Shown: positions 16,454 to 38,200 of the stretch, one piece after another
How the letters are laid out: the number at the start of each line of letters is the position of its first letter
Numbering within the stretch: the stretch's first letter is position 1
Source: Pseudomonadales bacterium
GTDB taxonomy: Bacteria > Pseudomonadota > Gammaproteobacteria > Pseudomonadales > JAHRWD01
DNA length: 64,000 bases
Assembly (NCBI GenBank): GCA_019090315.1
Contig: JAHRWD010000013.1
Location: 60,585 to 124,584, forward strand
Reading direction: 5' to 3'
The notes under the pieces: generated by a model
The model's database searches: none
The model's input: only the letters and a program-made list of their open reading frames with translations
What the model was told of the DNA's origin: nothing
Program-made: the position numbers and the translations under genes

Positions 16454-16539
16454 GTTTTGATATTTGAAGAATGTAAATGCTTGCGAGTGGTCTATATTTA
16501 GTTTAAATTTGGGTCGTTTAAGCTATGGAGAGAATCACT

Positions 16540-16815
16540 ATGAATTTAGCAAAAAATACTAAACCGATCAGTTACCTAAAGGCTAACGCAGCAAAGGTAG
16601 CTGAAATGGTGAAAGAGACACATCAGCCCATGATGATCACCCAAAATGGGGAGGCGTCAATGGTGGTCATGTCCGTAATTGATTATGAAAAATCCCAGGA
16701 AACCCTGGCATTGCTGAAAATGCTTTCACAAAGCCATAAGGATATTCAAGACAAAAATACGGTATCTGCTAAGAAGGCCTTTAAAGAACTACGTTCAAAG
16801 CGCGGCTTAAAATAG
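16540..16815 (+). CDS. Phd/YefM-family antitoxin
   Basis: A small protein (PISYLKANAAKVAEMVKETHQPMMITQNGEASMVVMSVIDYE) with the typical YefM fold signature. Its stop overlaps the toxin's GTG start by 1 nt. Confidence 0.8.
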   Translation: MNLAKNTKPISYLKANAAKVAEMVKETHQPMMITQNGEASMVVMSVIDYEKSQETLALLKMLSQSHKDIQDKNTVSAKKAFKELRSKRGLK

Positions 16816-17138
16816 TGCCATTAAAAGTCGAGTTATCTCGATCTGCACTGAATGATTTGTTTGAAATTGACGATTATTATTTCCAACAAGTTAACGATAA
16901 CATTGCGTCAAACATTATCGATGAGCTGGAAGCCGCAGTTCTTAGTTTGGCGGAGTTTCCTGAAAAAGGACATGCGCCACGAGAGCTAATTGATATAGGT
17001 ATGCCAGAAATAAAGGAACTGATTTCGTCCAACTATCGGATTATTTACGAAGTCGTTAACAAAATAGTATATGTCCACGCCATTCTGGATTCCAGGAGGG
17101 ATGTACAAACGTTGCTGCAGAAACGGCTTCTGAAATAG
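16815..17138 (+). CDS. ParE/RelE-family toxin
   Basis: A 107-aa protein with the C-terminal pattern YRIIYEVVNKIVYVHAILDSRRD, typical of ParE/RelE toxins. It is coupled to the upstream antitoxin. Confidence 0.75.
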   Translation: MPLKVELSRSALNDLFEIDDYYFQQVNDNIASNIIDELEAAVLSLAEFPEKGHAPRELIDIGMPEIKELISSNYRIIYEVVNKIVYVHAILDSRRDVQTLLQKRLLK

Positions 17139-19662: not shown

Positions 19663-19859
19663 CCGCTCAGTGCTGGAACCCAGCTGACAGACCGGTCTAG
19701 CGGGCTCTATAGATTTTGTGACCCTATACGGCTGAATAAAATTGCTTACCATTTCTAATCTCGCTTAATTCCTATTACTATCTGGTACTCCGACAGAGTT
19801 GTCGGCGCACTAATTCTCTATATTTTACCAGCCGATTTCCCATCATAAGGAGAGTGTTA

Positions 19860-20561
19860 ATGGATTTGTCAGCATTTCAAAATAAAACCTGTAGTGAGAT
19901 CGAGCTACTGAAGCAGTTACCGTTGGATCAATCTGTGATTGTTGAGCTGGGTTGTGGCAAGGCGGATATTACACGTTTCATAGCTTCTAACTGCACAGGA
20001 AGTAAAGTGATTGCTACCGAGGTAGACGCCATTCAGCATGAGAAAAATCTGCTGATTGATGATCTACCCAATGTTACCTTTTTGATGGCTGGTGCAGAGA
20101 GTATTCCCGCTGAGAATGATTCGGTTGATGTAGTCTTTATGTTTAAATCTTTACATCACGTACCCCTGGATAAAATGGATTCAGCCCTTGGAGAAATCAG
20201 GCGTGTTTTGAAACCAGGTGGAGTTGCCTATATTTCCGAGCCAATTTTTTCCGGTGACTTTAACGAGGTTCTACGTCTGTTTCATGATGAAGAGCAGGTC
20301 AGAGCAGCGGCTTATCAGGCAATTCAAAAAGCAGTTAATGGAAAGCTACTGTCGCAAATTGACGAAATTGAGTTTAACTCTCCTATGGCCTTTGAAAGCT
20401 TTGAGTTTTTTGCCGATAAGGTTGTCAACGTGACCCACACCGATCACAAGCTGTCATCGGAACTTTTGAAGAAGATAGAAATACAGTTTATGAAAAATAT
20501 GACAAAAGAGGGCGCGCGATTTGAAATGCCCATTCGTATTAATTTGCTACAGAAAAAATAG
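19860..20561 (+). CDS. Class I SAM-dependent methyltransferase
   Basis: Motif I VIVELGCGKAD, an acidic loop, and post-I motifs (VDVVFMFKSLHHV, LKPGGVAYISEP). An AGGAG lies 7 nt before the ATG at 19860. Confidence 0.8.
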   Translation: MDLSAFQNKTCSEIELLKQLPLDQSVIVELGCGKADITRFIASNCTGSKVIATEVDAIQHEKNLLIDDLPNVTFLMAGAESIPAENDSVDVVFMFKSLHHVPLDKMDSALGEIRRVLKPGGVAYISEPIFSGDFNEVLRLFHDEEQVRAAAYQAIQKAVNGKLLSQIDEIEFNSPMAFESFEFFADKVVNVTHTDHKLSSELLKKIEIQFMKNMTKEGARFEMPIRINLLQKK

Positions 20562-21280: not shown

Positions 21281-22258
21281 CTATCGGAATTTGTAAACCT
21301 CAGTGTCGGGATAGAAGCCATACCATGCAAACCAGAATGCACGTATTGCTGGTAGCTGTTCCCCAGCGCTATTTTTTATAGTCGCAGTTTTACTTTTTGG
21401 ATCGAAGACAATTTCTACGGGCTTACCTAGAAAAGTATCATTTATAGTGGTTGTGCCAGTTTTAACTGCCGATTTGTTCAATTCGGAAAACGGCCACACT
21501 TTGGCTTTGCCATCTTTCTCGAGGCCCAACACCATCTCCTTATTGGTATAGCGCTTATCTGTCTTTGAAATTGGAAAAAATAGTTTTTCTGTTTTGTCGT
21601 AGCCTTTATAGGGGTCATCGTCGTAATCCCTAAGCGCGCCGGTTTGTGTAGAAAGAACTTCGCCTTTTGGATGCTCGTGTTTCCATTGAGTCCAGGGAAT
21701 ATGAGTTACCGAAAGTCGTTTTAGTCGAGCACCCGCCATCGGGCCGCTCACTGCTGTTCCCGGTATTTGTGACCAGAGGCTATCGGTCTGACGGTCGTAC
21801 ATCAGCATGTCGTTGTTGTGGAGCAAGCCGGAGACACCAAAGTCGATTACCTGCTCCCCCTTCTCTTTTTCTGCGGGTGCTATTGCCTGAGATAAAAACG
21901 CAATTCCGGTTCCGCACAACGGGCAAAAGGTAATGACGACTGGGTCTTGCTCAAACTCGGTGTTGACAATTTCGTGCCAGATTAAAATTCGAATCGGATA
22001 CGCTCTGGCGATCCCGTTAAGTTCTAGCCCTAATACCAGATCATCATCCTTCAGATAATCCACTTGTGATATCTGTAGGTATTCCGGGCTATTAATAGAA
22101 GGAATGCCATCCCGGGGCGGCCCACCCTGATGAATTTCCGAAACCGGAATTAAACTATCAGATAGATCAAAGCCATTTTTATTAGTGGTGCCGGCCGCCA
22201 GTGCCGTTGCGCTGATGGCCGTTGCGAAAAGTATAAAAATTAATTTGTTCATCATCAC
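21281..22258 (-). CDS. Secreted DUF3179-domain protein
   Basis: A signal peptide, plus ITFCPLCGTG and WSQ blocks as I recall for DUF3179. It is the last gene of the ECF sigma operon. Confidence 0.7.
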   Translation of the reverse strand: MMMNKLIFILFATAISATALAAGTTNKNGFDLSDSLIPVSEIHQGGPPRDGIPSINSPEYLQISQVDYLKDDDLVLGLELNGIARAYPIRILIWHEIVNTEFEQDPVVITFCPLCGTGIAFLSQAIAPAEKEKGEQVIDFGVSGLLHNNDMLMYDRQTDSLWSQIPGTAVSGPMAGARLKRLSVTHIPWTQWKHEHPKGEVLSTQTGALRDYDDDPYKGYDKTEKLFFPISKTDKRYTNKEMVLGLEKDGKAKVWPFSELNKSAVKTGTTTINDTFLGKPVEIVFDPKSKTATIKNSAGEQLPAIRAFWFAWYGFYPDTEVYKFR

Positions 22259-22319
22259 CTCTATTGAAGTTGGTAATGAGTCATTGCTGCACTGCGAAGT
22301 TTTTTATCAGACCGGGAAT

Positions 22320-22538
22320 TTAGTCGTCGATAGAATCCATTATTCTTGATATTTCTTCGTCACTGGCTTTTCGATGCATAAATGACGTTGCATCTTTAAG
22401 TGCCTGGAACTGATGAACATAGCGAGAACAGTGTTTGCAGATCAATAGATGAAACCTGAATCGCCATTGGCGATGTCGTGGCAGGTCATCAGATAGAAAC
22501 TGGTCTGCTTCATCGACTACCTCTCTGCACTTTAACAC
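22320..22538 (-). CDS. Short zf-HC2 (ZAS) anti-sigma factor, no TM segment
   Basis: A 72-aa protein with the HxxxCxxC motif (FHLLICKHCSRY). It overlaps the upstream sigma gene's stop. Confidence 0.7.
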   Translation of the reverse strand: MLKCREVVDEADQFLSDDLPRHRQWRFRFHLLICKHCSRYVHQFQALKDATSFMHRKASDEEISRIMDSIDD

Positions 22539-23173
22539 TCGCCTGTCTCCTGATAATGGTCCACCAGTTTGAAAAGGTGCGCCCTGGCCCGGTGTAGCAA
22601 TACTCGCGCATTGGATGCAGAGATCGACAGATTGTTACAAATTTCTCCAAAGGGCAGTTCGCTGCTGTCGCGCATCTCCAATATTGCCCGCTGATTGTTG
22701 GGCATTGCTGTCAATATTCGATCGAGACATTGAGCCAGATCGTCGCTCATCAATAGTGCTTCTGGGGAATCGTAATGCCAGGTAGCTGGGGGTGTCGCCC
22801 AATGACCAGTTTGAGTGAACCTGTCTGCCAGTGCATCGCTGTCAGACCCATCTCCCGCCAAATCAGAGAACAGAGTTTCCTTTTTTCGAGCACGTAATTG
22901 CATCTTTGCTTCATTTATTACAATACGACTTAACCAGGTACGGATTTTGGATTTCCCCTCAAAACTCGCAATTGCTTTATAGGCCTTGATCCAGGCAATC
23001 TGTACCACCTCTTCTGCTTCGCTGAACCCTACAATTGGAATGGCCAGTGCAACCAATGCATGGTGATGATCGCGAACAAGAATAGAAAACTGGGTTTTGT
23101 TGCCAGCCTTTAAAGCTGGCAACTGATCCTTATCGGTCATCCGGCCGTTCCTGATAGGTACGTAAAGCGCCAT
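22532..23173 (-). CDS. ECF (sigma-70 family) RNA polymerase sigma factor
   Basis: Sigma-2 region (AEEVVQIAWIKAYKAIASFEGKSKIRTWLSRIVINEA) and sigma-4 region (QRAILEMRDSSELPFGEICNNLSISASNARVLLHRAR), joined by a long linker. Confidence 0.85.
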   Translation of the reverse strand: MALYVPIRNGRMTDKDQLPALKAGNKTQFSILVRDHHHALVALAIPIVGFSEAEEVVQIAWIKAYKAIASFEGKSKIRTWLSRIVINEAKMQLRARKKETLFSDLAGDGSDSDALADRFTQTGHWATPPATWHYDSPEALLMSDDLAQCLDRILTAMPNNQRAILEMRDSSELPFGEICNNLSISASNARVLLHRARAHLFKLVDHYQETGEC

Positions 23174-23236: not shown

Positions 23237-23836
23237 TCATTTGGTACGAGTGCTCCAGGCCAATAGTTCCATACGATCAGCCCCAAAAAACAGTTCGTTG
23301 CCCCATACGAATGTAGGTACACCAAAAACACCCGATTCATATGCAGTGATTGATTTTTGTATCAGTGCTTCCATCCCTTCTACTTTGGCGACTTGAATGA
23401 TTTCAGGATCATGATTCATATCCTTCAGGATTCTTTCGAGAATGCTGATGTCATTGACATCCAACTGTTTCTGCCACACTGCTTCAAATATGGCATTACC
23501 AAATGCTGAGTGTTCAACGCCATTGGTTTCCATCACGGAAGCAGTCGCCATAGCAATATTACATGCGGGGGGAGTAGGCTTTGGTGGTGCAAAATCTATA
23601 TTCCAGTACTTTATCATGCGGAATATATCCGCCATAAAGTGGTCACGTTTTGCAGGGCACATGGGGTCAAGTACCTCTGAGGTGGGTTCTCGGTCTGCCT
23701 GGAGATTGAGTAGAACGTCAACTAAAACGGGTTTCCGTACAATTTCTACATCTTCCGCTGTAAGTAGCGCTAACCGCTGCGATGCAAAATATGCAAAGGG
23801 GCTACGAAAATCATAATACATTTCAATTTTTTTCAT
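23237..23836 (-). CDS. DsbA-family 2-hydroxychromene-2-carboxylate isomerase-like protein
   Basis: The N-terminal YYDFRSPFAYF and C-terminal GVFGVPTFVWGNELFFGADRM match the HCCA isomerase/DsbA-like thioredoxin-fold family. Confidence 0.8.
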   Translation of the reverse strand: MKKIEMYYDFRSPFAYFASQRLALLTAEDVEIVRKPVLVDVLLNLQADREPTSEVLDPMCPAKRDHFMADIFRMIKYWNIDFAPPKPTPPACNIAMATASVMETNGVEHSAFGNAIFEAVWQKQLDVNDISILERILKDMNHDPEIIQVAKVEGMEALIQKSITAYESGVFGVPTFVWGNELFFGADRMELLAWSTRTK

Positions 23837-24090
23837 ATCTGCATAGGAGCCTGTTCAGTTGTTATGTCGCCTGCACCGGGTTTGTTCATCGATGCTACCT
23901 GTATTCTATGGCTTTTGATCGTTCAATCAATACCAGGAAAAAGGCTGAATCAAAAAGTAGGGTAAACTCCAGTGCTTTGGCTGTTAAACATACCTGCCGT
24001 CCAGTTTTTTTAAAGTCAAATGTAACAATTCACCGATCTGCGCATCTACTGTGCAGAACAAATACTTTAGATACACCGCTGGAGCGATAA

Positions 24091-25044
24091 ATGCACGCGA
24101 CCCTACCTCTATTACAGGCCACTGATTTTCCGCAGGTTTACCGAACTGGCCTCGAAACCCTGCAGGTTAATCTGGGTTACAAATGCAACCTTTCCTGTTT
24201 GCATTGCCATGTGAATGCCGGGCCGACCCGTAAAGAGATGATGGATGACGATACGCTTGAGCTGGTTATCGAAATGCTTAAAACCGGCCGTATCAGTACG
24301 TTGGATCTGACCGGTGGTGCACCGGAATTGCATGAACGGTTTCGTGATTTGGTAGTGGTAGCGACTGATCTGGGCATCAAAGTGATTGACCGCTGTAATC
24401 TCACCATCCTGTTTGAGCCGGGTCAGGAAACCCTTGCTGAGTTTTTAGCGCAGCATCAGGTTGAGGTTGTAGCCTCTTTGCCCTGTTACTCGCTGGAGAA
24501 TGTAGATCAGCAGCGTGGTGATGGGGTGTTTGATAAGAGTGTCGCTGGGTTACAACAACTGAATGCGCTTGGATATGGAAAACCCAATTCCGGATTAAAC
24601 CTGAACCTGGTGTTTAACCCCCAGGGGCCAACCCTGCCGCCGGAGCAGCAAGGTTTGCAGGCTGACTATAAACGAGAGCTGAGCAAACACTTTGATATTG
24701 AGTTTAACGAGCTGTTTGTGGTCACCAATATGCCGATCAAACGCTTTGGTTCCACCATGATTTCAAAGGGAACCTTCCACGGATATATGGAACTGTTAAA
24801 GGATAACTACCTTGAAAGCAATCTCGAAAACCTGATGTGTCGCTCAATGGTCAGCGTTGATTGGCAGGGTTATATCTACGACTGTGATTTTAACCAGCAA
24901 CTTGAGCTGACCCTCGCTGCGGAAGATCGTCCTCATCTGCGTGACCTGTTGAAGAAAGAGGTCGAGGGCCAGCAGATAAATATTGCGGATCACTGTTTTG
25001 GCTGCACCGCAGGGCAGGGTAGTAGTTGTGGCGGTGCGTTATAA
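24091..25044 (+). CDS. arsS: Radical SAM/Cys-rich-domain protein, ArsS-like (TIGR04167 family, Cys variant)
   Basis: Contains the radical SAM CxxxCxxC motif (YKCNLSCLHC) and the characteristic C-terminal CFGCTAGQGSSCGGAL. All Cys codons are TGT/TGC, with no in-frame TGA. Confidence 0.8.
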   Translation: MHATLPLLQATDFPQVYRTGLETLQVNLGYKCNLSCLHCHVNAGPTRKEMMDDDTLELVIEMLKTGRISTLDLTGGAPELHERFRDLVVVATDLGIKVIDRCNLTILFEPGQETLAEFLAQHQVEVVASLPCYSLENVDQQRGDGVFDKSVAGLQQLNALGYGKPNSGLNLNLVFNPQGPTLPPEQQGLQADYKRELSKHFDIEFNELFVVTNMPIKRFGSTMISKGTFHGYMELLKDNYLESNLENLMCRSMVSVDWQGYIYDCDFNQQLELTLAAEDRPHLRDLLKKEVEGQQINIADHCFGCTAGQGSSCGGAL

Positions 25045-25106
25045 CGTTCGCATTCAATTAACGGTTACGCGTTTATTTCAAGTATTGAGATCCAAGGAAT
25101 AGCACG

Positions 25107-27257
25107 ATGAAAAAAATTAGTTTAGTCCTGGTGCTAATTGCATTGATGGCCGGATTTTTCATATTCGATCTGCATCAGCTGCTTACCCTTGACGGTATTA
25201 AAGGCAGCCTCGGTCAAATTGAAAGCTGGCGGGCCAACGCACCGCTTTTGGCTGCAGGCATCTATTTTGGAATCTACATATTAGTCACTGCGCTGTCTCT
25301 GCCCGGTGCAGCCATCATGACGTTGGTTGGCGGTGCGCTGTTTGGGCTGGGCTGGGGTTTGCTGCTGGTTTCGTTCGCTTCCAGTATCGGTGCGCTGCTG
25401 GCCTTTCTGGTATCACGCTATGTATTGCGGGACTGGGTGCAATCACGTTTTGGCGATCGGCTGAAAACTATCAACGAAGGGATCGAAAAAGAGGGCTCGT
25501 TCTATCTATTTACCCTGCGACTGGTACCGATCTTCCCATTTTTTGTCATCAACCTGTTAATGGGGCTGACCCCAATGCGGGCAGCGAGTTTCTACTGGGT
25601 CAGCCAGGTCGGCATGCTTGCGGGCACCGCTGTTTACGTCAATGCCGGAACTCAGCTGGGACAACTAGAAAGCCTCTCGGGAATTCTCTCACCGGGCTTA
25701 CTATTCTCCTTTGTTTTGCTGGGGCTATTTCCTCTGATTGCGAAAAAAATAACCGACCAGATCAAAAGCCGACGGGTATATGCGCGCTGGAATAAACCCA
25801 AAAAATTCGACCGCAATATGATTGTGATCGGCGGCGGTGCCGGCGGTTTGGTCGCCTCCTATATTGGCGCAACCGTAAAGGCCAAAGTGACGCTTATCGA
25901 AGCGCATAAAATGGGTGGCGACTGCCTCAATTATGGCTGCGTACCCAGCAAGGCATTGATCCGTAGCGCCAAGCTCGCACACCAGATGCGTAACGCAGAA
26001 AAATATGGACTGGACTCAGCCGAGCCAACCCTTTCGTTCAAAAAAGTGATGGGACGAATCGAGCAGATTGTGCGGGACATTGAGCCCCATGACAGCGTCG
26101 AGCGATACACCGAGCTGGGCGTGGAGGTGCTACAGGGCTACGGCAAGATTGTTGATCCCTGGACTGTTGAGATCAAAATGAACGATGGCAGCAGCCAACG
26201 GCTCACCGCTCGCAGCATTGTGATTGCCGCCGGTGCCCAGCCCTTCGTTCCGCCACTGCCGGGCATTAAAGAGTCAGGCTACGTGACCAGCGATACGCTT
26301 TGGGAAGAGTGCGCCAAACTGGATCAGCCTCCAGCTAAATTAGTGGTGCTGGGTGGCGGCCCAATCGGCTGTGAACTGGCCCAGAGTTTTGCGCGATTAG
26401 GTTCTGACGTTTCTCAAATTGAGATGTTGCCCAGAGTGCTAATCCGCGAAGATGAGGATGTGTCAGAGCTGGCTCAGCGTACCCTCGAAAGTAATGGCAT
26501 AAATGTACTGGTGGGCCACAAAGCGCTACGTTGTGAAAATGTCGGAGAAGACAAATTTATCGTGGTCGAAAAGCATGGCCAGGAACAGCGTATCCAGTTT
26601 GATCTACTGGTCTGTGCGGTGGGCCGCTCGGCTCGGCTTGATGGTTACGGCCTTGAAGAACTCGGAATAGAAACCAACCGAACCGTTCTCACCAACGATT
26701 ATCTCGAAACTCTCTACCCGAATATCTATGCCGCCGGAGATGTGGCGGGGCCATATCAGTTCACCCACACCGCCGCCCACCAGGCCTGGTATGCCGCGGT
26801 TAATGCACTGTTTGGGCAGTTCAAACGCTTCAAGGTCGATTATCGAGTGATCCCCTGGACCACTTTTATCGACCCGGAGGTAGCGCGAGTCGGTATCAAT
26901 GAACAGGAAGCAAAAGAGCAGGGCGTCCCTTACGAGCTTACCCGTTATGGTCTTGATGACCTTGATCGAGCCATTGCCGACAGCGCGGCGATTGGGTTCA
27001 TCAAAGTACTTACGGCTCCCGGAAAGGATCGAATCCTGGGGGTCACCATCGTCGGCGAACATGCGGGAGATCTGCTGGCAGAGTTTGTGCTGGCGATGAA
27101 ACATGGCCTAGGTCTAAACAAAATCCTCGAGACCATCCATACCTACCCCACCTGGGCAGAGGGCAACAAATACGCCGCAGGGGAGTGGAAAAAAGCCCAC
27201 GCTCCGCAAAAAGTGCTGGCTCTGTTGGAGCGTTATCACAGCTGGAGACGAGGTTGA
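25107..27257 (+). CDS. Fusion protein: DedA/TVP38-TMEM64 membrane domain + FAD-dependent pyridine nucleotide-disulfide oxidoreductase
   Basis: The N-terminal ~230 aa are multi-TM DedA-like. These are followed by GGGAGG (FAD), the redox-active CLNYGCVPSK, GGGPIGCELA (NAD) and a C-terminal dimerisation domain. Confidence 0.85.
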   Translation: MKKISLVLVLIALMAGFFIFDLHQLLTLDGIKGSLGQIESWRANAPLLAAGIYFGIYILVTALSLPGAAIMTLVGGALFGLGWGLLLVSFASSIGALLAFLVSRYVLRDWVQSRFGDRLKTINEGIEKEGSFYLFTLRLVPIFPFFVINLLMGLTPMRAASFYWVSQVGMLAGTAVYVNAGTQLGQLESLSGILSPGLLFSFVLLGLFPLIAKKITDQIKSRRVYARWNKPKKFDRNMIVIGGGAGGLVASYIGATVKAKVTLIEAHKMGGDCLNYGCVPSKALIRSAKLAHQMRNAEKYGLDSAEPTLSFKKVMGRIEQIVRDIEPHDSVERYTELGVEVLQGYGKIVDPWTVEIKMNDGSSQRLTARSIVIAAGAQPFVPPLPGIKESGYVTSDTLWEECAKLDQPPAKLVVLGGGPIGCELAQSFARLGSDVSQIEMLPRVLIREDEDVSELAQRTLESNGINVLVGHKALRCENVGEDKFIVVEKHGQEQRIQFDLLVCAVGRSARLDGYGLEELGIETNRTVLTNDYLETLYPNIYAAGDVAGPYQFTHTAAHQAWYAAVNALFGQFKRFKVDYRVIPWTTFIDPEVARVGINEQEAKEQGVPYELTRYGLDDLDRAIADSAAIGFIKVLTAPGKDRILGVTIVGEHAGDLLAEFVLAMKHGLGLNKILETIHTYPTWAEGNKYAAGEWKKAHAPQKVLALLERYHSWRRG

Positions 27258-27261
27258 GAAA

Positions 27262-28065
27262 ATGCGGTTTTTCGCAGCTTTGTTGATGAGTCTGTTAGTG
27301 AGCCTCCAGACCAATAGTTTGATAGCCGAGCCTATGAATCATGCGCACTGGGATAGTCTGCTAAAAAAGCACGTTAAGTCGATTGATGGTGGCAGCGCCA
27401 CGGCCCTCGATTACTCAGGATTTGCCCGTGACACGGGTCGGTTTAAAAGCTATCAGGATCAACTATCCCGTGTGACTCAAACCGAGTTTGATCAATGGAG
27501 CAAAGACAACCAGCTGGCATTTCTGATCAACGCCTACAACGCTTTTACCGTAGCGCTGATCCTGACCAAATACCCCGGTCTGGATTCGATAAAGGATCTT
27601 GGCAGTTTCTTTAGCTCGCCCTGGAAAAAGAAATTCATCAAGCTGCTGGGCCAAACCCGTTCGCTAGACGATATCGAACATAAACTGATTCGTGGTTCCC
27701 GCCGCTACAACGATCCGCGTATTCATTTCGCCGTGAACTGCGCCAGCATCGGTTGTCCGGCATTGCGGGCTGAAGCCTATATGGGCGATCGAATCGACTC
27801 GCAACTGCAAGACCAAACCAGACAGTTCCTGTCAGATACCAGTCGTAACCGATCTGAAAATGGTCAGCTTGAAGTCTCATCCATTTTTAAATGGTATCGC
27901 GAGGATTTTGAAAAGGGCTGGTTGGGTTTCGATTCGCTAGAAGACTTTTTTGTTGCCTATAAATCAGAGCTGGGTATGGCTGACGAGCAACTATCTGACC
28001 TGCAAGCCGGAAAAATAGATATCGAATTTCTTGATTATGACTGGCGACTAAATGATGTCCGTTGA
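27262..28065 (+). CDS. DUF547-domain protein (secreted)
   Basis: A signal peptide, with the FLINAYNAFTV and RIHFAVNCASIGCPAL blocks typical of DUF547. The gap to the upstream gene is 4 bp. Confidence 0.75.
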   Translation: MRFFAALLMSLLVSLQTNSLIAEPMNHAHWDSLLKKHVKSIDGGSATALDYSGFARDTGRFKSYQDQLSRVTQTEFDQWSKDNQLAFLINAYNAFTVALILTKYPGLDSIKDLGSFFSSPWKKKFIKLLGQTRSLDDIEHKLIRGSRRYNDPRIHFAVNCASIGCPALRAEAYMGDRIDSQLQDQTRQFLSDTSRNRSENGQLEVSSIFKWYREDFEKGWLGFDSLEDFFVAYKSELGMADEQLSDLQAGKIDIEFLDYDWRLNDVR

Positions 28066-28774
28066 TCAACCGTCCCCGATCTCTACCCCCCGGTTGTCGA
28101 TCCCACGGTTATCCATAATAGTACCGATGCTCAACGAAGCGCCTCAGCTACCGGAGTTGCTGTCGCATCTGCAGACCTATAAAAACAGAAACTGCGAAAT
28201 CATTTTGGTGGATGGTGGCAGCAGTGATGGCTCCGTCGAGATCGCTTCAAAGCAGTTCAATGTTATCTCATCCCCCGCTGGACGAGCACGGCAAATGAAT
28301 GCGGGGGCGAGAATAGCGCAGGCGGAACAGCTACTTTTTTTGCATGCGGATACGCGGCTTCCCGCTGTTGCAGATCGTTTAATTCTGGATGGCCTCAAAC
28401 AATCCAATAGCCAGTGGGGTCGTTTCGATGTATCCATTCAGGGTGACTCAAAAATGTTGCCCGTGGTGAGCTGGTTTATGAACAAACGCTCCCGCCTCAG
28501 TGGTATCGCCACCGGTGACCAGGCTATTTTTGTAACCGCAGAGGCTTTTTATTTGGTGTCCGGTTTTCCCGATCAGCCGCTGATGGAAGATATCGAAATT
28601 TCCCGCCACCTGCGGAAGCTCTCACCTCCCGCCTGTCTATCACAAAAGGTAACTACCTCCGGTCGGCGTTGGGACCAGCGCGGCTCATGGCGCACCATTT
28701 TTCTAATGTGGCGATTGCGCTGGGCATACTGGCGTGGCAAGCCTGCCGAACAGCTTGCGAGTATCTACCGATGA
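28052..28774 (+). CDS. GT2-type transferase, rSAM/selenodomain-associated 'transferase 2' (TIGR04283-like)
   Basis: LSIIVPMLNEA, VDGGSSDGS and LFLHADT motifs are present. The gene overlaps both neighbours. Confidence 0.75.
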   Translation: MMSVDQPSPISTPRLSIPRLSIIVPMLNEAPQLPELLSHLQTYKNRNCEIILVDGGSSDGSVEIASKQFNVISSPAGRARQMNAGARIAQAEQLLFLHADTRLPAVADRLILDGLKQSNSQWGRFDVSIQGDSKMLPVVSWFMNKRSRLSGIATGDQAIFVTAEAFYLVSGFPDQPLMEDIEISRHLRKLSPPACLSQKVTTSGRRWDQRGSWRTIFLMWRLRWAYWRGKPAEQLASIYR

Positions 28775-29463
28775 GCTTTCTGCAACAAAAGCCTCTGCGA
28801 ATTGTGATCTTCGCCAAAGCCCCCATCGCGGGCTTTGCAAAAACTCGATTAGCCCCGGTATTGGGCGATGAAGGCGCGGCGGCATTGGCCGCCCAGTTGC
28901 TCACTCGTACAGTAAATGAAGCCATTTCAGCCAATATCGGAAGTGTCGAGCTTTGTGTCGTATCGGATCATCACCAGTTCCAGTGGGGCCTGCTTAATTT
29001 ACCCGCCGATCTGATCTGGAGCCAGCAGGGTGAAGGTGACCTGGGCCAGAAAATGTCCCGTGCCGCTCAGCGGGTGTTGAAACAGGAGACCGACAAGGAT
29101 CAATCGGTACTGATTATCGGTACAGACTGCCCAATGCTGGATGCCGATATGTTGCGACTCGCGGCGCAAAAACTTTCACAGGCCGACGTTTGCCTGGGCC
29201 CAGTGAGTGACGGTGGTTACGCGCTGCTCGGTATGAATCAATTTGATGCTTCGGTTTTTACCGACATTCCCTGGAGCACCGATCAGGTCGCACGGTTAAC
29301 CCGTGGGAAAGTAGCCGCCCTGAACTGGACACTGCAGGAGCTGCCAATAATGAACGATATTGATGAACCGGATGATCTGCAGTGGTTACCCGAGGATATG
29401 GTGTTCGCGCCATATAAACAATCAGTAGCCAGTGCAGCCAGTGACACGGTAAAAGCACTGTGA
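28771..29463 (+). CDS. DUF2064 / rSAM-selenodomain-associated 'transferase 1' (TIGR04282-like)
   Basis: With the ATG at 28771 (ATGA overlap with the upstream stop), the N-terminus reads RIVIFAKAPIAGFAKTRL, which is typical of DUF2064. IGTDCP and DGGY blocks are also present. Confidence 0.75.
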   Translation: MSFLQQKPLRIVIFAKAPIAGFAKTRLAPVLGDEGAAALAAQLLTRTVNEAISANIGSVELCVVSDHHQFQWGLLNLPADLIWSQQGEGDLGQKMSRAAQRVLKQETDKDQSVLIIGTDCPMLDADMLRLAAQKLSQADVCLGPVSDGGYALLGMNQFDASVFTDIPWSTDQVARLTRGKVAALNWTLQELPIMNDIDEPDDLQWLPEDMVFAPYKQSVASAASDTVKAL

Positions 29464-30299
29464 TGTTACATATTATTCGCGACATCCAAGCCAGCATTCG
29501 AAATCTGGTCATGTCAGCCTTCCTGGCCGTGGCTATACCACAAATAGCAATCGCCGCTGAGCACCTTTCCATAACCGGCTCCAGCACCGTTGCACCCCTG
29601 GCTCTGGAGATCGCCAAACGTTTTGAAAAACTGAATCCCGGTATTCGGATAGATGTTCAAACCGGCGGTTCATCCCGTGGTATCAACGATGCCCGTCGCG
29701 GACTGGCGGATATCGGCATGGTTTCCCGAGCGCTCAAGGATTCTGAAAAAGACCTCACAGCCCATACCATTGCTACCGACGGTATAGGTATTATTTTACA
29801 CAGTGATAATCCGGTGACTCATCTAAGCGATGATCAAATCAGGGCAATCTACACCGGAAAAATCCGTAACTGGCGTGAACTGGGCGGCGCTGACCGAGCG
29901 ATCACCGTCGTCAATAAGGCCGAAGGTCGTTCAACCCTTGAGCTGTTCCTGCACTATTTTGGATTGCGAAATAGCCAGATCAAAGCCAGCGTGATCATTG
30001 GCGATAACCAGCAGGGGATCAAAACCGTTGCGGGCAATCCCGGCGCAATTGGTTATGTATCGATCGGCACGGCGGAATATGAGGAGCAACGCGGCGTTAG
30101 CATTAAACGACCGATTGTGAACGGTGCCGAAGCCAGTATTGCCAGTGTCAGAGCGGGAGATTTTCCACTATCACGCCCGCTGAATCTGGTTACCCGCGGC
30201 GAAATCAGCGAGTGGGCCAAACGTTTTATCCTGTTCGCGCAAAGTGCTGAGGTGGATGATCTGGTGGAGGGACAGTTCTTTGTCTCGCAGCAACATTGA
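29460..30299 (+). CDS. pstS: PstS-family phosphate/oxyanion ABC transporter substrate-binding protein
   Basis: GSSTVAPLA and VQTGGSSRGI are motifs of the PBP_like_2 PstS family. The start (GTG 29460 or ATG 29463) overlaps the stop of the upstream gene. Confidence 0.85.
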   Translation: MMLHIIRDIQASIRNLVMSAFLAVAIPQIAIAAEHLSITGSSTVAPLALEIAKRFEKLNPGIRIDVQTGGSSRGINDARRGLADIGMVSRALKDSEKDLTAHTIATDGIGIILHSDNPVTHLSDDQIRAIYTGKIRNWRELGGADRAITVVNKAEGRSTLELFLHYFGLRNSQIKASVIIGDNQQGIKTVAGNPGAIGYVSIGTAEYEEQRGVSIKRPIVNGAEASIASVRAGDFPLSRPLNLVTRGEISEWAKRFILFAQSAEVDDLVEGQFFVSQQH

Positions 30300-31137
30300 T
30301 CGGCTGATCGAGCCACCGCTGCGACTGGCGGGTTTTGTCTGCGCAGCGATCCTATTGCTGATATTGCTGTTTCTGATGAAAGAGGCCGCGCCGGTTTTAT
30401 CTAGTGGCGGCTGGCGACTGTTTGTTGCCGACACCGGCTGGTATCCGATGGAGGGCCTGTTCGGCATTTTGCCGATGCTGGTTGCCTCGTTAGTGGTGAT
30501 GCTCGGTGCCATCGTACTCGCAGCGCCGATAGGTCTTGGCTGCGCTATTTTTCTGCAATATTACGCACCGCCGGTATTAGCCAAAGCATTTCGATTGCTG
30601 CTGTCATTGCTGGCGGGTATGCCATCGGTAGTGCTGGGCCTGTGGGGATTGACGGTTTTGGTGCCACTCATCAGCGGCTGGCAACCACCGGGTACCAGCT
30701 TGTTGACCGCAATAATTGTACTGGCGCTGATGGTGGTGCCGACCATGGCACTGGCCAGCGCTTCGGCATTGTCCAGCGTGCCGGACAGTCTAATGAACGG
30801 GGCGGCGGCCCTTGGTTTAACTCTTCGCGCACGTATCTGTTTTATCGCGTTGAGCGCCGCCCGCACAGGAATTCGCAGCGCTGCATTGCTATCGATGGCT
30901 CGCGCGATTGGCGAAACCATGGTGGTGCTGATGGTGGCGGGTAATGTGGTGCAATATCCCAGCGGATTGTTCGAACCGGTACGGGTATTAACCGCCAACA
31001 TTGCGTTGGAGATGGCCTATGCGACGGATCTGCATCGGGCTGGTTTATTTGCTTCTGGATTGTTACTAACCCTGATTGTCCTGGCACTGGCCTGGATGGC
31101 AGCGCGTTCCGGCAGGCGAGATACGCAATATGGCTGA
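30244..31137 (+). CDS. pstC: Phosphate-type ABC transporter permease PstC
   Basis: A 6-TM permease with the EAA loop ARAIGETMVVLMVAGN. The true start is probably internal (ATG 30256 or later), because the tracked start overlaps pstS by 56 nt. Confidence 0.85.
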   Translation: MLRWMIWWRDSSLSRSNIDRLIEPPLRLAGFVCAAILLLILLFLMKEAAPVLSSGGWRLFVADTGWYPMEGLFGILPMLVASLVVMLGAIVLAAPIGLGCAIFLQYYAPPVLAKAFRLLLSLLAGMPSVVLGLWGLTVLVPLISGWQPPGTSLLTAIIVLALMVVPTMALASASALSSVPDSLMNGAAALGLTLRARICFIALSAARTGIRSAALLSMARAIGETMVVLMVAGNVVQYPSGLFEPVRVLTANIALEMAYATDLHRAGLFASGLLLTLIVLALAWMAARSGRRDTQYG

Positions 31138-31960
31138 TCGTCTGTTTACCAGCGCTGTCTGGTTCTGTGCCGCACTGATTGCCGCCGCGCTACTGTGGGT
31201 GGTGGGTGATCTGGCTCGACTGGGGCTTTCCCATATCTCGCTGGAGTTTATATTCAGTGCCCCCGAAAATGCCGGTCGCAGCGGCGGCATCGGTCCCATT
31301 CTGGTTTCCACCCTGCTGATTATCGGCGTGACTCTGGCGGTGGCCTTGCCCCTTGGGTTGATGGTGGCGGTGTGGTTGGCGGAGTTTACCCGAAGGGAAA
31401 ACCGGCTTGGTAACCAGATCCGATTAGCGCTGGATGTAATGGCGGGCATCCCGTCGATCGTGTTTGGCCTGTTTGGTAATGCGTTTTTTTCAATCTACCT
31501 TGGTTTGGGTTTTTCCATTCTCTCTGGTGGCCTGACCCTGGCACTCATGATTCTTCCGGTATTTATTCGTACCTGCGAAATCGGTCTGACATCGGTAGAC
31601 AATAGCTGGCGACGGGGCGCGCAGGCACTGGGTATGACCCGTAGTGCCACAGTCTGGCATATCTTGTTACCCGCTACTGCACCGGCGATAACCGCGGGAT
31701 TAATACTTGGCATCGGCCGCGCTACTGCCTAAACTGCCGCACTGATTTTTACCAGCGGCTACGTTGATCGCATGCCCGAATCCCTGTTTGATTCCGGCCG
31801 CGCACTGGCGGTACACATTTACGACCTTTCGATGAACGTAACCGGGGGTGATCCAGCGGCCCATGCATCAGCATTGTTGTTAATCGCCCTGATCATCCTT
31901 ATTAATCTGGTGGCCCAGGGGTTTTCCGACCGCTGGTTACACCGAAGACTCGCGACCTGA
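31130..31960 (+). pseudogene. pstA: PstA permease interrupted by an in-frame TAA (31730-31732)
   Basis: ORFs 31076..31732 and 31772..31960 are in the same frame. The junction reads GIGRATA*TAALIFTSGY, compared with the PstA consensus GxARAAGETAPLLFT. The stop therefore replaces the conserved EAA-loop Glu (GAA to TAA). Confidence 0.8.
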
Positions 31961-31965
31961 GCGCA

Positions 31966-32826
31966 ATGGATATGAATCAAATGACACCCACTCCGGACAT
32001 CATGGCTTATAGCGCCTACACACTTGGCGAAGTAACCGAGGCTCAACCGTGCTGTTTGCCCGAGCCGCATCTGCAGATTCGTGATCTGTCGGTCAGCTAT
32101 GACGAACATCAGGTGCTCGAAACCGTATCGCTGGATATCTACAAAGGTTGCATCACCGCGCTTATTGGTCCGTCCGGCTGCGGAAAAACAAGCTTTCTCT
32201 CATCACTGAACCGGCTCACAGATCTGATGGCCAACGCACAGATACAGGGTTCCATTCGTTTCGATGGCGAAGAGATTCTCACGGACAAAACAGACACACT
32301 GATCTTGCGTCGCCGCATTGGAATGGTCTTCCAGAAACCCAACCCATTCCCGCTCTCAATCCGCCGCAATCTTTATCTGCCATTAAAAGAAAACGGTGTT
32401 CGTAATCGAAAACAACTGGCAGAACGCAGTGAGTGTGTGCTGCGTGAAGTGGGATTATGGGATGAAGTAAAAGACCGTTTGGATAGCCCTGCGCTAGCCC
32501 TTTCCGGCGGTCAACAACAACGTCTCTGTATCGCCCGTGCCCTGGTTTTAGAGCCGGAAGTGTTATTGATGGATGAACCCTGCAGCGCCCTCGACCCCAT
32601 CGCCTCCGCAAAAGTAGAAGAGCTGATCAGCAGCCTTGCTGGACGCTACACTGTAGTGATTGTCACCCACAATCTCGCCCAGGCCAAACGGGTTGCTAAC
32701 TACGCAGGGTTTTTCTGGATGGTAGAAAAGGTTGGTAAACTGATTGAATTTGGACAGTGCGATCGTCTATTTGAGTCCCCGGAAAGTGAATTGACGGCCG
32801 CTTTTGTTTCGGGTATTCGAGGTTGA
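31966..32826 (+). CDS. pstB: Phosphate-type ABC transporter ATP-binding protein PstB
   Basis: Walker A GPSGCGKTS, signature LSGGQQQRLCIARAL, Walker B LLMDEPCSALD, and the PstB-typical RRRIGMVFQKPNPFP. Confidence 0.9.
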   Translation: MDMNQMTPTPDIMAYSAYTLGEVTEAQPCCLPEPHLQIRDLSVSYDEHQVLETVSLDIYKGCITALIGPSGCGKTSFLSSLNRLTDLMANAQIQGSIRFDGEEILTDKTDTLILRRRIGMVFQKPNPFPLSIRRNLYLPLKENGVRNRKQLAERSECVLREVGLWDEVKDRLDSPALALSGGQQQRLCIARALVLEPEVLLMDEPCSALDPIASAKVEELISSLAGRYTVVIVTHNLAQAKRVANYAGFFWMVEKVGKLIEFGQCDRLFESPESELTAAFVSGIRG

Positions 32827-34955: not shown

Positions 34956-35321
34956 ATGTTTTCAAAGATAAAAAAGTGGATACCGCTTGGTTCTGTCCCA
35001 GAGCTTTCATGTGAAGAGCTTAACCTGTTGATCAAAAATAATGCTGTTGCAGTTCAGATCCTTGATGTGCGTACTCGGGCTGAGTGGCAAGCAGGGCATA
35101 TCGTTGGCGCAACCAATATTCCAATCATCAATCTCAACGGAGCCGTAGATGGCCTGGCATTTGATAAAAATGTTCCGGTGGTGGCAATCTGTTTGAGTGC
35201 GCACAGAAGTATTCCAGCCGTACGGGTATTGCAAGATCTTGGTTACAGCGATGTAAAACAATTGGCTGGCGGTATGCGTGCCTGGAACAAGCTGTACAAG
35301 CATGAATTAGAAAAGCCGTAG
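34956..35321 (+). CDS. Single-domain rhodanese (sulfurtransferase)
   Basis: Contains the active-site loop CLSAHRS (CxxxxR[ST]). The size and flanking pattern are typical of rhodanese. Confidence 0.8.
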   Translation: MFSKIKKWIPLGSVPELSCEELNLLIKNNAVAVQILDVRTRAEWQAGHIVGATNIPIINLNGAVDGLAFDKNVPVVAICLSAHRSIPAVRVLQDLGYSDVKQLAGGMRAWNKLYKHELEKP

Positions 35322-35331
35322 AGATCTGGTT

Positions 35332-36006
35332 TTGAACAAATTTAGTGATAAAAAAATAGTCGATTCCTGGAGCAAGAATGCTACGCCCTGGATACAGGCA
35401 ATCCAGAAAAATGAAATCGAAAGTAGAAGGATCGTCACAGATCAGGCGATTATTGATACGGTTTTATCATGTTCCGCAAAAACCGTTTTAGATATTGGCT
35501 GCGGTGAAGGATGGTTAGTGCGAGCGCTTTCCGCATGCGGAATCATATGCTCCGGATTGGATATTGTTCCTGAATTAATAGAAGAAGCGATAAAGCAATC
35601 AGCACATGAATTTTCAGTATTAGCCTACGAAGAAATATCCACCGAAACAATACCCAATAAATATGATGCGGTTGTCTGTAATTTTTCACTTCTGGGTGAA
35701 AAATCTGTTGAGAAAGTATTCAGTTCTGCACGAACATTACTAAATCAAGATGGGGTTTTAATCGTGCAAACATTACACCCTGAAACGAATTCAACGGAGG
35801 GTGAATATAAGGACGGTTGGCGCGAAGGATCATGGGCAGGTTTCAGTGATCAGTTTTATGATCCCGCTCCATGGTATTTTAGGACGACTGAATCATGGGT
35901 GAAGCTGTTCCAAAAATATGGTTACAAACTGGTTTCTCAGAAACAAACAATCAATCCAAAAACAGAAAAACCAGCTTCGTTGATATTGCTCGGTAGAGCA
36001 GGTTAA
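35332..36006 (+). CDS. Class I SAM-dependent methyltransferase
   Basis: Motif I VLDIGCGEGWL is present, with a TTG start 10 nt after the rhodanese stop. Confidence 0.75.
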   Translation: MNKFSDKKIVDSWSKNATPWIQAIQKNEIESRRIVTDQAIIDTVLSCSAKTVLDIGCGEGWLVRALSACGIICSGLDIVPELIEEAIKQSAHEFSVLAYEEISTETIPNKYDAVVCNFSLLGEKSVEKVFSSARTLLNQDGVLIVQTLHPETNSTEGEYKDGWREGSWAGFSDQFYDPAPWYFRTTESWVKLFQKYGYKLVSQKQTINPKTEKPASLILLGRAG

Positions 36007-36039: not shown

Positions 36040-37104
36040 ATGAAGCATCACCTGTTTTCCGAATTAGAAATTCCTATTATTCAGGCACCGATGGCGGGTG
36101 TTCAGGATAGTGCTCTGGCAATAGCAGTATCATTAGCTGGCGGCCTGGGCTCCTTGCCCTGCTCAATGCTTGGAATAGATGGATTGCGCGATGAACTGGC
36201 ATTTATTAAATCCAAAATTGATAAGCCAATAAATGTAAATTTTTTCTCTCATGACCAACCGGAATTTAATCCCGAACAGGAAGAAAGTTGGCGGCTAGTG
36301 TTAAAGCCGTATTTTGATGAGTACGGGCTGGATATAAATAACATTTCTACAGGAGGTGGACGGGAACCATTCAGTCATGCCGCCGCAGATGTGCTAGAGG
36401 AATTCAAACCGGAGTTTGTAAGTTTTCATTTTGGGCTACCAGAAAAGGGCTTGATGCAGCGTGTAAAAACCTGGGGTGCAAAAGTGCTCAGTTCGGCAAC
36501 CACAGTTGAAGAAGCTCAGTGGTTGGAGGCACATGGTGCCGATGGCATTATCGCGCAGGGCATCGAAGCGGGCGGTCATCGCGGAATGTTTTTAACAAAA
36601 AATCTATCGATTCAGCCTGGAACTTTTGAACTGCTGCCAAAAATTGTAGAACAGGTATCGGTACCGGTGATAGCAGCCGGCGGAATTACCGATGCGAAAG
36701 GCGTTGCTCATGCGCTTTCACTTGGCGCAACTGCGGTGCAATTGGGTACCGTTTATCTATTGTGTGATGAAGCAAAAACCAGCGCTGTCCATCGAGCAGC
36801 GATTAAGGGCAGTGTGGATAATCAAACGAGCATTACCAATATATTTTCAGGGCGGCCAGCGCGGGGAATTGTAAATCGTGCAATTCGGGAGCTTGGTCCT
36901 ATCAATGTGAATACGCCAGAGTTCCCATTGGCATCCGCCGCGATTACAGAGTTACGCAGGCATTGTGAGCAAAATGGCTCCAGTGACTTTACGCCCCTTT
37001 GGTGTGGGCAACATACCGCTGGCTGTGCCGAAATTTCGGCGGGTGAGCTGACGCAGAGACTGGCTTCGGATATTCGAAGAAGAGCAGATTTTCAGGGAGT
37101 ATAG
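36040..37104 (+). CDS. Nitronate monooxygenase (NMO, 2-nitropropane dioxygenase family)
   Basis: PIIQAPMAGV, GIEAGGHRG and VIAAGGITDAKG blocks match the FMN TIM-barrel NMO family. Confidence 0.85.
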   Translation: MKHHLFSELEIPIIQAPMAGVQDSALAIAVSLAGGLGSLPCSMLGIDGLRDELAFIKSKIDKPINVNFFSHDQPEFNPEQEESWRLVLKPYFDEYGLDINNISTGGGREPFSHAAADVLEEFKPEFVSFHFGLPEKGLMQRVKTWGAKVLSSATTVEEAQWLEAHGADGIIAQGIEAGGHRGMFLTKNLSIQPGTFELLPKIVEQVSVPVIAAGGITDAKGVAHALSLGATAVQLGTVYLLCDEAKTSAVHRAAIKGSVDNQTSITNIFSGRPARGIVNRAIRELGPINVNTPEFPLASAAITELRRHCEQNGSSDFTPLWCGQHTAGCAEISAGELTQRLASDIRRRADFQGV

Positions 37105-37174
37105 CCTCTGAAATTTGATCGAGAATACAGTAGGCTGCTCACATAATTAGAAACTAAAATCTGGACGATTCCCA

Positions 37175-38200
37175 ATGAAGACAAAATTTACTGAACTGTT
37201 TGGCATTCAATATCCTGTTGTTCTATCTGGCATGAGCAAAGTTGCAGTACCCAAACTGGTTGCGGCGGTGTCCAACGCCGGTGGCTTGGGCATACTGGCA
37301 ACCGGGCCACTGAGTGGCGATGAAACACGTGCGGCGATTCGTGAAATTCGTTCCTTAACCGATAAACCCTTCGGTATTGGGGTGACCCTGATCATGCCCG
37401 GCGCGGTTGAAAATGCCCAGATTGGCCTGGAAGAAAAAGTACCAGTTATCAACTTCTCCCTGGGTAAGGGTGACTGGATTGCGGAACAAGCCCATGCTTA
37501 TGGCGGCAAGGTAATCGCTACCGTAGTGAATGAACGCCATGCGATGGCGGCGCAACGCCACGGTGCGGATGCGGTTTTTGCAACGGGTTATGAAGCCGCG
37601 GCCCACGGCGGGCCGGTAACATCAATGGTACTGATTCCTTCGATAGTGGATGCCGTGGATATTCCGGTTATTGGAGCAGGTGGTTTTGCAGATGGCCGAG
37701 GGCTGGTCGCTGCGTTGGCATTGGGTGCGCAAGGTATTGCGATGGGCAGTCGTTTTTCGATCACCCAGGAGAGCCCGATTCACGACAATACCAAACAAAC
37801 TGTGATCGGTAATGCGATTGAAGATACCTTCATCACCGAGAAACTGGATGGCATGGATTGCCGAGTAATGAAAAGCCCGGCGGCTGAGAAGATGGATAAA
37901 GCTTCCATTAATTTGATGGCTGCACTAAAAAATTCATTCAAGGTCTCAAAGAGCCTCGGTGTTCCCTGGGTTAAAGTCGCTGTTGGCGCTTTAATTACCG
38001 GCCCTGAAAAAGTGATGCAGTTGGCGCGCTCCGCAAATGCTTCGGAAGCACTGGATCTGGCGATCAAGCAGGGTGACGTAGTTAATGGTGTTCATCTGGT
38101 AGGCCAGGTGCAGGGGCGACTAAAAGATACACCAACCGTTGCGGAGGTCATGCAACGGGTGATTGAGGAAGCAGAGTCGGTTAAATCCGGCTTTTCTTGA
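37175..38200 (+). CDS. NMO/FabK-like FMN-dependent oxidoreductase (second paralog)
   Basis: YPVVLSGMSKVA, GYEAAAHGG and VIGAGGFADGRG blocks. It is clearly diverged from the upstream NMO. Confidence 0.8.
   Translation: MKTKFTELFGIQYPVVLSGMSKVAVPKLVAAVSNAGGLGILATGPLSGDETRAAIREIRSLTDKPFGIGVTLIMPGAVENAQIGLEEKVPVINFSLGKGDWIAEQAHAYGGKVIATVVNERHAMAAQRHGADAVFATGYEAAAHGGPVTSMVLIPSIVDAVDIPVIGAGGFADGRGLVAALALGAQGIAMGSRFSITQESPIHDNTKQTVIGNAIEDTFITEKLDGMDCRVMKSPAAEKMDKASINLMAALKNSFKVSKSLGVPWVKVAVGALITGPEKVMQLARSANASEALDLAIKQGDVVNGVHLVGQVQGRLKDTPTVAEVMQRVIEEAESVKSGFS

Follow-up and report, generated by a model that had tools for sequence, protein, structure and literature searches.

The window analysed here is a 64-kb stretch (64,000 nucleotides) of contig JAHRWD010000013.1 from a Pseudomonadales bacterium, a gammaproteobacterium of marine type, in which the gene for the radical S-adenosylmethionine (SAM) enzyme ArsS heads a string of genes that is, as judged from its gene junctions, a nine-gene translationally coupled operon (24091-32826). 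The locus is real and correctly identified, and it falls in a neighbourhood that already has a name; what makes it look odd, the missing methyltransferase gene arsM, is common. On balance, we lean towards the view that the product of this operon is a 5'-deoxy-5'-arsinoyl-ribose (arsenosugar-type) compound and that the operon brings its own oxyanion importer. This view builds on family memberships, gene order, conservation of that order and linkage statistics, all observed here, and on an ArsS chemistry established elsewhere. The nine genes are as follows.

24091-25044, + strand: arsS, radical SAM enzyme with a Cys-rich DUF3641 C-terminal domain (TIGR04167, PF04055, PF12345)
25107-27257, + strand: DedA/VTT membrane domain fused to a class I FAD/NAD(P)H disulfide oxidoreductase (PF09335, PF07992, PF00070, PF02852)
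27262-28065, + strand: DUF547 protein with an N-terminal signal-peptide-like helix (PF04784)
28052-28774, + strand: GT2-type glycosyltransferase (TIGR04283, PF00535)
28771-29463, + strand: DUF2064/TIGR04282 protein with a nucleotide-diphospho-sugar-transferase fold, CofC/MobA-like (TIGR04282, PF09837)
29463-30299, + strand: pstS-like periplasmic binding protein of the cassette-linked subfamily (PF12849, 137.5 bits)
30280-31137, + strand: pstC-like ABC permease (TIGR02138, 210.9 bits, cut-off 196.45)
31130-31960, + strand: pstA-like ABC permease, with an in-frame TAA at 31730-31732 in the window (see below)
31972-32826, + strand: pstB-like ABC ATPase (PF00005; TIGR00972, 329.6 bits, just below the cut-off of 343.2)

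An earlier description made from the letters alone (the sequence-only reading) had recognized the first five of these genes as a closely packed cassette. The five open reading frames (ORFs) do lie where it placed them, all on the + strand, with a largest spacing of 62 bp and with CNLSCLHC and CFGCTAGQGSSCGGAL in the first protein; their junctions are a 62-bp gap, a 4-bp gap, a 14-bp overlap and, between GT2 and DUF2064, an ATGA overlap. The unit does not end at 29463, however. The DUF2064 stop codon shares one base with the start codon of the pstS-like gene (TGATG), and pstC, pstA and pstB then continue to 32826, with an 8-nt overlap between pstC and pstA, and pstB starting 11 nt past pstA. 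Junction overlaps are thus continuous from DUF547 through pstA. The DUF2064 start was set at 28771 rather than 28669, as in the L001 gene call and in keeping with the ATGA overlap, and the pstC start at 30280 was taken from the L001 gene call. Scans of the 23.1-33.4 kb region for intrinsic terminators and for sigma-70 promoters gave no signal beyond shuffled expectation. The order arsS, dedA::FAD, DUF547, GT2, DUF2064, pstS, pstC, pstA, pstB, without arsM, is found unchanged in L001, a metagenome contig identical over 18.5 kb apart from two bases considered further below, and in L086, L087 and L088 (GCA_016763075.1), three independent assemblies whose ArsS proteins are 90, 90 and 84% identical to that of the window. 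Since the same arsM-less order holds down to 84% ArsS identity, it represents a stable clade architecture and not a recent accident. The sequence-only reading overlooked both the pstSCAB-like importer and a sigma/anti-sigma pair on the other side of arsS, which are the more informative local features.

The family assignments themselves are firm. TIGR04167, TIGR04282, TIGR04283 and PF04784, which the sequence-only reading had named, all score above their curated cut-offs in hidden Markov model searches. ArsS reaches 461.2 bits on TIGR04167 (cut-off 300) over profile positions 3-303 of 303, and 188.2 bits on PF12345/DUF3641, with PF04055 matching as well. Its radical SAM motif CX3CX2C reads C32-N-L-S-C36-L-H-C39, and its C-terminal CFGCTAGQGSSCGG is invariant across 14 homologues. 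An identical protein is already present at NCBI as 'MAG: arsenosugar biosynthesis radical SAM protein ArsS [Pseudomonadales bacterium]'. The GT2 protein scores 268.9 bits on TIGR04283 (cut-off 182) and 60.6 bits on PF00535, and the DUF2064 protein 194.2 bits on TIGR04282 (cut-off 134) and 110 bits on PF09837, with 3cgx as its relative in the PDB (E 6e-17). The window carries all three markers of the TIGR04167/04282/04283 neighbourhood, named 'arsenosugar biosynthesis' in NCBIfam, in their usual order; the arsenosugar names of TIGR04282 and TIGR04283 are extrapolations.

[quoted passage not shown] The window protein belongs to the same TIGR04167 equivalog family as the ArsS of Synechocystis sp. 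PCC 6803 (Xue et al. 2017/2019, Cheng et al. 2021, via citing papers), and the same chemistry is expected. The genetic setting is different. In Synechocystis, a cyanobacterium, arsS is co-transcribed with its partner arsM. Here, in a heterotrophic-type gammaproteobacterium, this characterized arrangement of co-located or co-transcribed arsM and arsS is not found within the 64 kb, and arsS stands instead at the head of an operon in which it is followed by a DedA-flavoprotein, DUF547, two transferases and an ABC importer. The ArsL/ArsM arsinothricin pathway likewise combines C-As bond formation by a radical SAM enzyme with an ArsM partner, but ArsL belongs to a different family and moves a 3-amino-3-carboxypropyl group, whereas the window protein is of the ArsS type.

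The surroundings of related arsS genes were surveyed by a pattern scan of GTDB species representatives, which gave 80 loci from Gamma- and Betaproteobacteria whose ArsS proteins show 65-73% identity. Neighbours were counted in the 43 loci having at least 9 kb on both sides, by clustering the ORFs and annotating representatives. GT2 and DUF2064, which with arsS make up the core of the neighbourhood, are each present in 37/43 loci and the DedA-FAD fusion in 32/43, followed by an MTAP-type phosphorylase (20/43; 307.7 bits, cut-off 274.85), an ArsM-like methyltransferase (16/43), a TIGR03169 oxidoreductase (16/43), DUF547 (13/43), an extracytoplasmic function (ECF) sigma factor (8/43), a PiT-family transporter (6/43) and an orthologous Pst system (3/43). 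Compared with other loci of this neighbourhood, the window thus adds the pstSCAB-like genes and is without the MTAP, TIGR03169 and ArsM-like neighbours that are common elsewhere. The MTAP-type gene often lies just upstream of arsS (29/80 loci, L004, L018, L024 and L027 among them), with none in the window; the enzyme is a candidate for adenine removal from the ArsS product.

The TIGR03169 neighbour (356.9 bits), described as an oxidoreductase 'N-terminal to SelD', recalls the original 'selenodomain-associated' naming of the neighbourhood, as does the family name of ArsS, according to which some members are selenoproteins. One could thus imagine that the element handled by the cassette is not arsenic but, for instance, selenium. 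We regard this as highly improbable: the ArsS substrate shown by experiment is dimethylarsenite, the recurrent neighbours are ArsM-like proteins and transporters of the phosphate/arsenate type (Pst, PiT) and not of the sulfate/selenate type, and the window ArsS encodes Cys, not Sec, in its C-terminal motif.

The importer deserves closer attention. The PstS-like protein scores 171.6 bits on TIGR02136, under the PstS cut-off of 206.6, and among solved structures it comes nearest to the phosphate-binding proteins 4q8r, 4gd5 and 1twy. All nine cassette-linked PstS orthologues, which come from two proteobacterial classes, have an invariant VVNKAEGRSTLELFL at the position of VVSREDGSGTRDAF or VVTREASSGTRYSF in the solved proteins, so that the loop reads GRST instead of the GSGT/SSGT of 4q8r and 1twy; they also carry GGSSRG in place of GSSAG. 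The phosphate loop of E. coli PstS, R-x-D-G-S-G-T (residues R135/D137/S139-T141), which recurs in 4q8r and 1twy, aligns with K-A-E-G-R-S-T in the window protein, a sequence that does not vary among eight aligned cassette-linked orthologues. Because these positions have changed, the cassette-linked PstS subfamily is predicted to have a remodelled anion-binding pocket.

A second survey was run from the transporter side, by scanning JGI metagenome contigs with the subfamily's own motifs, and gave 80 further loci. Among the 52 with at least 1.5 kb upstream, an ArsM-like gene stands immediately upstream in 25 and DUF547 in 6, and at least one cassette gene, or an ArsM-like gene, lies beside the PstS subfamily in 38. 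ArsS is present in 13 of the 25 transporter loci with at least 9 kb upstream. L147, one of the 14 loci scored as having no cassette genes, shows by eye another ArsM-like, a PiT-like and an ArsR-like gene. By its linkage, the Pst subfamily is thus an arsenic-cassette-associated transporter, and its ties to ArsM, DedA-FAD and DUF547 are closer than those to ArsS. The linked ArsM-like gene sits within the same gene string in both surveys (16/43 ArsS-side and 25/52 transporter-side loci), which ties the cassette to arsenic methylation. A literature search found no description of this PstS subfamily or of its ArsS/ArsM link, and the subfamily defined by VVNKAEGRSTLELFL and GGSSRG (window, L003, L015, L042, L056, L072, L086-L088, L090-L169) appears undescribed.

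There is a published precedent for pst operons inside arsenic islands, namely those with aio genes (PMC3834237). The pst1 operons of these aio/ars islands are, as in the window, second Pst-type ABC systems linked to arsenic genes (PMC3834237). Their partner is arsenite oxidase, while the partner in the window is an ArsS/ArsM-type biosynthetic cassette, and the window binding protein belongs to a distinct subfamily in which GRST replaces the GSGT phosphate loop. This precedent gives weight to a simpler explanation, that the importer encoded by the pstSCAB-like genes is an ordinary one with high selectivity for phosphate, co-expressed to supply phosphate under arsenate and standing outside the biosynthetic route, since the same role has been proposed for pst1 (PMC3834237). 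PstC, PstA and PstB at or near the phosphate-transporter cut-offs, and the N-terminal GSSTV, SS-x-G and SR motifs retained in PstS, point in the same direction. The invariant replacement of GSGT by GRST, with nearby changes, in nine orthologues of two classes argues against it, as do the low PstS score (171.6 versus 206.6) and the translational coupling of pstS to biosynthetic genes. An ordinary phosphate importer is thus a possible, but rather less probable, explanation than the import of an arsenic oxyanion.

The sequence-only reading had attached most importance to the absence of arsenic genes. The absence itself is confirmed: when all other ORFs of the 64 kb were screened with NCBIfam and Pfam models, or with precomputed Pfam tables of matching metagenome contigs, no arsM, arsC, arsR or acr3 was found, nor any ArsB, ArsH or ArsA, and tblastn of the cassette-linked ArsM-like protein against the 64-kb window gave no match. 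The two methyltransferases of the window (19854-20561 and 35332-36006) were considered as ArsM candidates and rejected. Both are generic, and neither has the ArsM cysteine motifs; the former scores 32 bits against a cut-off of 263 on the arsenite methyltransferase model, and the 35.3-kb gene, which is absent from the 90%-identity relative, gives no score. The rhodanese at 34956-35321 was likewise rejected as an Acr2-type arsenate reductase, its loop CLSAHR being of the CX4R sulfurtransferase type and not CX5R.

Too much weight was nevertheless placed on the missing arsM. Of the 43 full-flank ArsS loci, 27 have no ArsM-like gene within 10 kb, so that the window belongs to the majority. Microbulbifer rhizosphaerae and M. 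hainanensis (L030 and L048) carry cassettes without arsM within 10 kb, and the same two assemblies encode solitary ArsM-like orthologues, 76-77% identical to the cassette-linked ArsM-like protein, on other contigs (JACHWZ010000003 versus ...001 for the cassette, and JACZCR010000028 versus ...003). An arsM-less cassette does not, therefore, mean an arsM-less genome, and an arsM acting in trans is the likeliest account of its absence from the window. The linked ArsM-like protein itself scores 169.8 bits on the arsenite methyltransferase model, retains by eye the CC, SNCV and ECLGGA cysteine motifs, and is labelled arsenite methyltransferase by both NCBI and JGI.

The position of the ArsM-like gene in relatives is informative. 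In the Pst-linked loci L015, L042, L056 and probably L003, it lies directly 5' of the orthologous pstS, a slot that corresponds to the one-base DUF2064/pstS overlap in the window. L003 (Halioglobus japonicus) and L090 (a TARA contig), the closest relatives with arsM, have the ArsM-like gene directly after DUF547, with no GT2 or DUF2064 detected in the available flanks, and the window has GT2-DUF2064 at that position. Methylation and sugar-transfer genes thus seem interchangeable in the slot after DUF547. Six further loci (L104, L108, L116, L137, L139 and L153) combine DedA-FAD and Pst-like genes with DUF547 and/or an ArsM-like gene, with no ArsS in the available flanks (of these loci, only L104, L108 and L153 have all 10 kb on the upstream side), which suggests that an uptake/redox/methylation module is separable from the ArsS sugar module.

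This empty slot could also be read as the mark of an ArsM-independent salvage, in which the clade has dispensed with arsM altogether. The remodelled PstS-like importer would take up already methylated arsenicals (dimethylarsinate or methylarsonate from phytoplankton), the flavoprotein and DUF547 would reduce them, and ArsS would adenosylate the product directly. Besides the loss of arsM from a slot held in linked relatives, with DUF2064 joined directly to pstS in four independent clade assemblies, this reading draws on the PstS-like loop, which differs at positions aligned with the GSGT phosphate loop, and on the lack of arsC in the window. It is made unlikely by the ArsM-like gene that adjoins 25/52 of the orthologous transporters, meaning that the subfamily as a whole does not replace ArsM, and by the two relatives in which arsM-less cassettes coexist with arsM in trans.

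A different kind of loss is raised by the pstA gene. Its ORF stops at 31732, and the same frame continues TAALIFTSGY... In L001, the codon at 31730-31732 is GAA (Glu, in ...GRATAETAALIF...), and the product is intact with 276 residues; pstA is intact in L086-L088 as well. A second nonsynonymous difference (Ser versus Pro) is found at 31781, 51 nt downstream of the TAA, and these are the only two mismatches between the window and L001 in 18,533 compared bases. They could reflect either a strain polymorphism, by which the importer would be inactivated, or an error in the consensus. The in-frame TAA at a conserved Glu, together with the second change close by, might be taken to mean that the operon is decaying in this genome, arsM having been lost, then pstA, and the function with them. 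Such decay is hard to reconcile with eight other genes that are intact with full-length family scores, with an intact pstA in the sister contig and three relatives, and with an arsM-less order stable to 84% ArsS identity; the TAA may moreover be a single-base assembly or consensus error. Decay thus appears very unlikely.

The DedA-flavoprotein and DUF547 are the least understood members of the operon, and the statement of the sequence-only reading that their roles are uncharacterized still holds. In the fusion protein, residues 69-182 match PF09335 and residues 237-688 match PF07992, PF00070 and PF02852; the protein carries the redox motif GGDCLNYGCVPSK and has the features of a class I pyridine nucleotide-disulfide oxidoreductase. 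Among solved proteins, MerA (260 bits) and lipoamide dehydrogenases are closest to it. Its C-terminal 480 residues align end to end with MerA and dihydrolipoamide dehydrogenase and share the CxxxxC redox disulfide, but it differs from MerA by the extra N-terminal DedA/VTT membrane domain and the lack of a C-terminal Cys pair. An identity as MerA was rejected on this ground (C-terminus ...ERYHSWRRG) and on the TIGR02053 score (358 bits versus 454), and the protein falls below every equivalog cut-off in NCBIfam. The DUF547 protein scores 100.4 bits on PF04784 (gathering threshold 27), starts with a hydrophobic helix of the signal-peptide type, and contains the motif H-x4-C-A-S-x-G-C-P, of which H155, C160 and C165 are invariant in 40 homologues. 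Its AlphaFold2 (AF2) model is of good quality (pLDDT 87, pTM 0.85). A Foldseek search with this model found no match in the PDB (best E 0.79, TM 0.18), a PDB sequence search found no relative, and a literature search on bacterial DUF547 returned nothing relevant. The frequent pairing of the flavoprotein and DUF547 with the transporter and ArsM suggests that they may keep arsenic trivalent by thiol redox, which is the weakest part of the model.

On the other side of arsS, the window contains the elements of a possible regulatory switch.

22532-23173, - strand: ECF sigma factor, a recurrent arsS neighbour (TIGR02937, 71 bits, cut-off 42.9)
22320-22538, - strand: small anti-sigma factor with the HxxxCxxC zinc anti-sigma motif (NF052368, 42.8 bits, below the cut-off of 50)
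24021-24046, + strand: ECF-type promoter-like motif TGTAACAA-N13-GCATC, 70 nt upstream of arsS
22614-22639, - strand: the other copy of the promoter-like motif, which falls within the 3' end of the sigma gene, ~100 nt upstream of the anti-sigma gene

The 72-residue anti-sigma contains ...FHLLICKHC..., and the two proteins together have the features of an ECF sigma/zinc anti-sigma (ZAS) pair. With a DUF3179 gene they form a trio at 21281-23173 (- strand), divergent from arsS and conserved at 47-85% identity in L003, L007 and L086; it occurs in this clade and in Halioglobus and Haliea. An ECF sigma is found near arsS in 19 related loci; besides L003, L007 and L086, whose 70-85% identical orthologues are divergent from arsS, another 15 loci have a more distant ECF sigma ahead of arsS. 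The DsbA-like gene at 23237-23836 (- strand), also divergent from arsS, is conserved in no related locus and is not counted in the system. The two motif copies, TGTAACAATCTGTCGATCTCTGCATC at 22614-22639 and TGTAACAATTCACCGATCTGCGCATC before arsS, resemble each other beyond the motif itself (TGTAACAAT...CGATCT..GCATC), and they are the only two matches when both strands of the 64 kb are scanned. In related loci, TGTAA[CGT][AG]A-N13-17-(CGAC|CATC) occurs 55-100 nt before arsS in 26/60 cases, as against 0.9% of random 250-nt segments; the motif was derived from loci in which it is counted, and only the 13 matches falling in the 43 loci that lack a linked ECF sigma, loci that played no part in spotting the motif, are semi-independent. 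From this pattern we infer ECF-dependent transcription with anti-sigma feedback.

These elements can be assembled into a tentative pathway. The PstSCAB-like system, with its altered loop, would import a group-15 oxyanion, either arsenate or a methylated arsenate. Reduction of this oxyanion would be aided by the membrane-anchored FAD disulfide reductase, which would also help to keep arsenic trivalent, and the Cys-pair protein DUF547 may take part. An ArsM-like enzyme encoded elsewhere in the genome would carry out methylation, and ArsS would adenosylate the methylated product. Adenine would then be removed, plausibly by an MTAP-type phosphorylase such as that found beside arsS in about half of related loci, and the DUF2064 protein, with its nucleotidyl/NDP-sugar-transferase fold, and the GT2 enzyme would activate and transfer the arsenoribose. 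The adjacent ECF sigma factor probably drives expression, and the thiol/zinc anti-sigma could respond to arsenite or thiol stress.

Several points weigh against this pathway. There is no arsM, arsC or other ars gene within the 64-kb window, and none of the best 120 ArsM-like database matches could be placed in the clade of the window, a weak argument given a family that is ~77% identical across classes. The ArsM-like family also lies under NCBIfam's own cut-off (169.8 versus 263). The functions proposed for GT2, DUF2064, MTAP, DUF547 and the flavoprotein are all instances of guilt by association, and to our knowledge no step downstream of ArsS has been biochemically demonstrated in any organism. 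What the PstS-like protein binds may simply be phosphate, there is a nonsense codon in the window's own pstA, and the promoter motif is in part counted where it was found.

A few other features of the surroundings can be mentioned. A Phd/YefM-ParE toxin-antitoxin pair lies at 16525-17138, between an RND efflux operon and a DinB-family gene, and in the 90% relative L086 a different pair, RelE/Xre, is inserted directly beside arsS. Two tandem NMO/FabK-like flavoprotein genes (36040-38200) follow the rhodanese and methyltransferase genes downstream of pstB; in the 90% relative, synteny extends to the rhodanese and NMO genes but not to the methyltransferase.

The practical message for this window is that its annotation is right, that the absent arsM is not anomalous, and that the unit comprises nine genes rather than five. 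What is added to the named neighbourhood is a transporter subfamily, probable ECF control and a list of candidates for the missing steps: the MTAP-type phosphorylase, DUF2064 with GT2, the Pst-like importer, and the DedA-flavoprotein with DUF547. As far as we know, arsenosugar biosynthesis has been genetically shown in a cyanobacterium only, and only up to the ArsS step. Arsenosugars and arsenolipids are major marine arsenic species, and the ~160 related loci surveyed show the ArsS core to be widespread in heterotrophic Gamma- and Betaproteobacteria. A bolder scheme, drawn from the same genes and in our opinion improbable, would have the PstS subfamily import environmental methylated arsenicals (or arsenate), the DedA-flavoprotein and DUF547, as a thiol system not recognized before, reduce them to feed ArsS without any ArsM step, and the ECF/ZAS pair act as an arsenite-sensing switch. 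If this were true, heterotrophic marine bacteria would be recyclers of dissolved methylarsenic into arsenosugars or arsenolipids.

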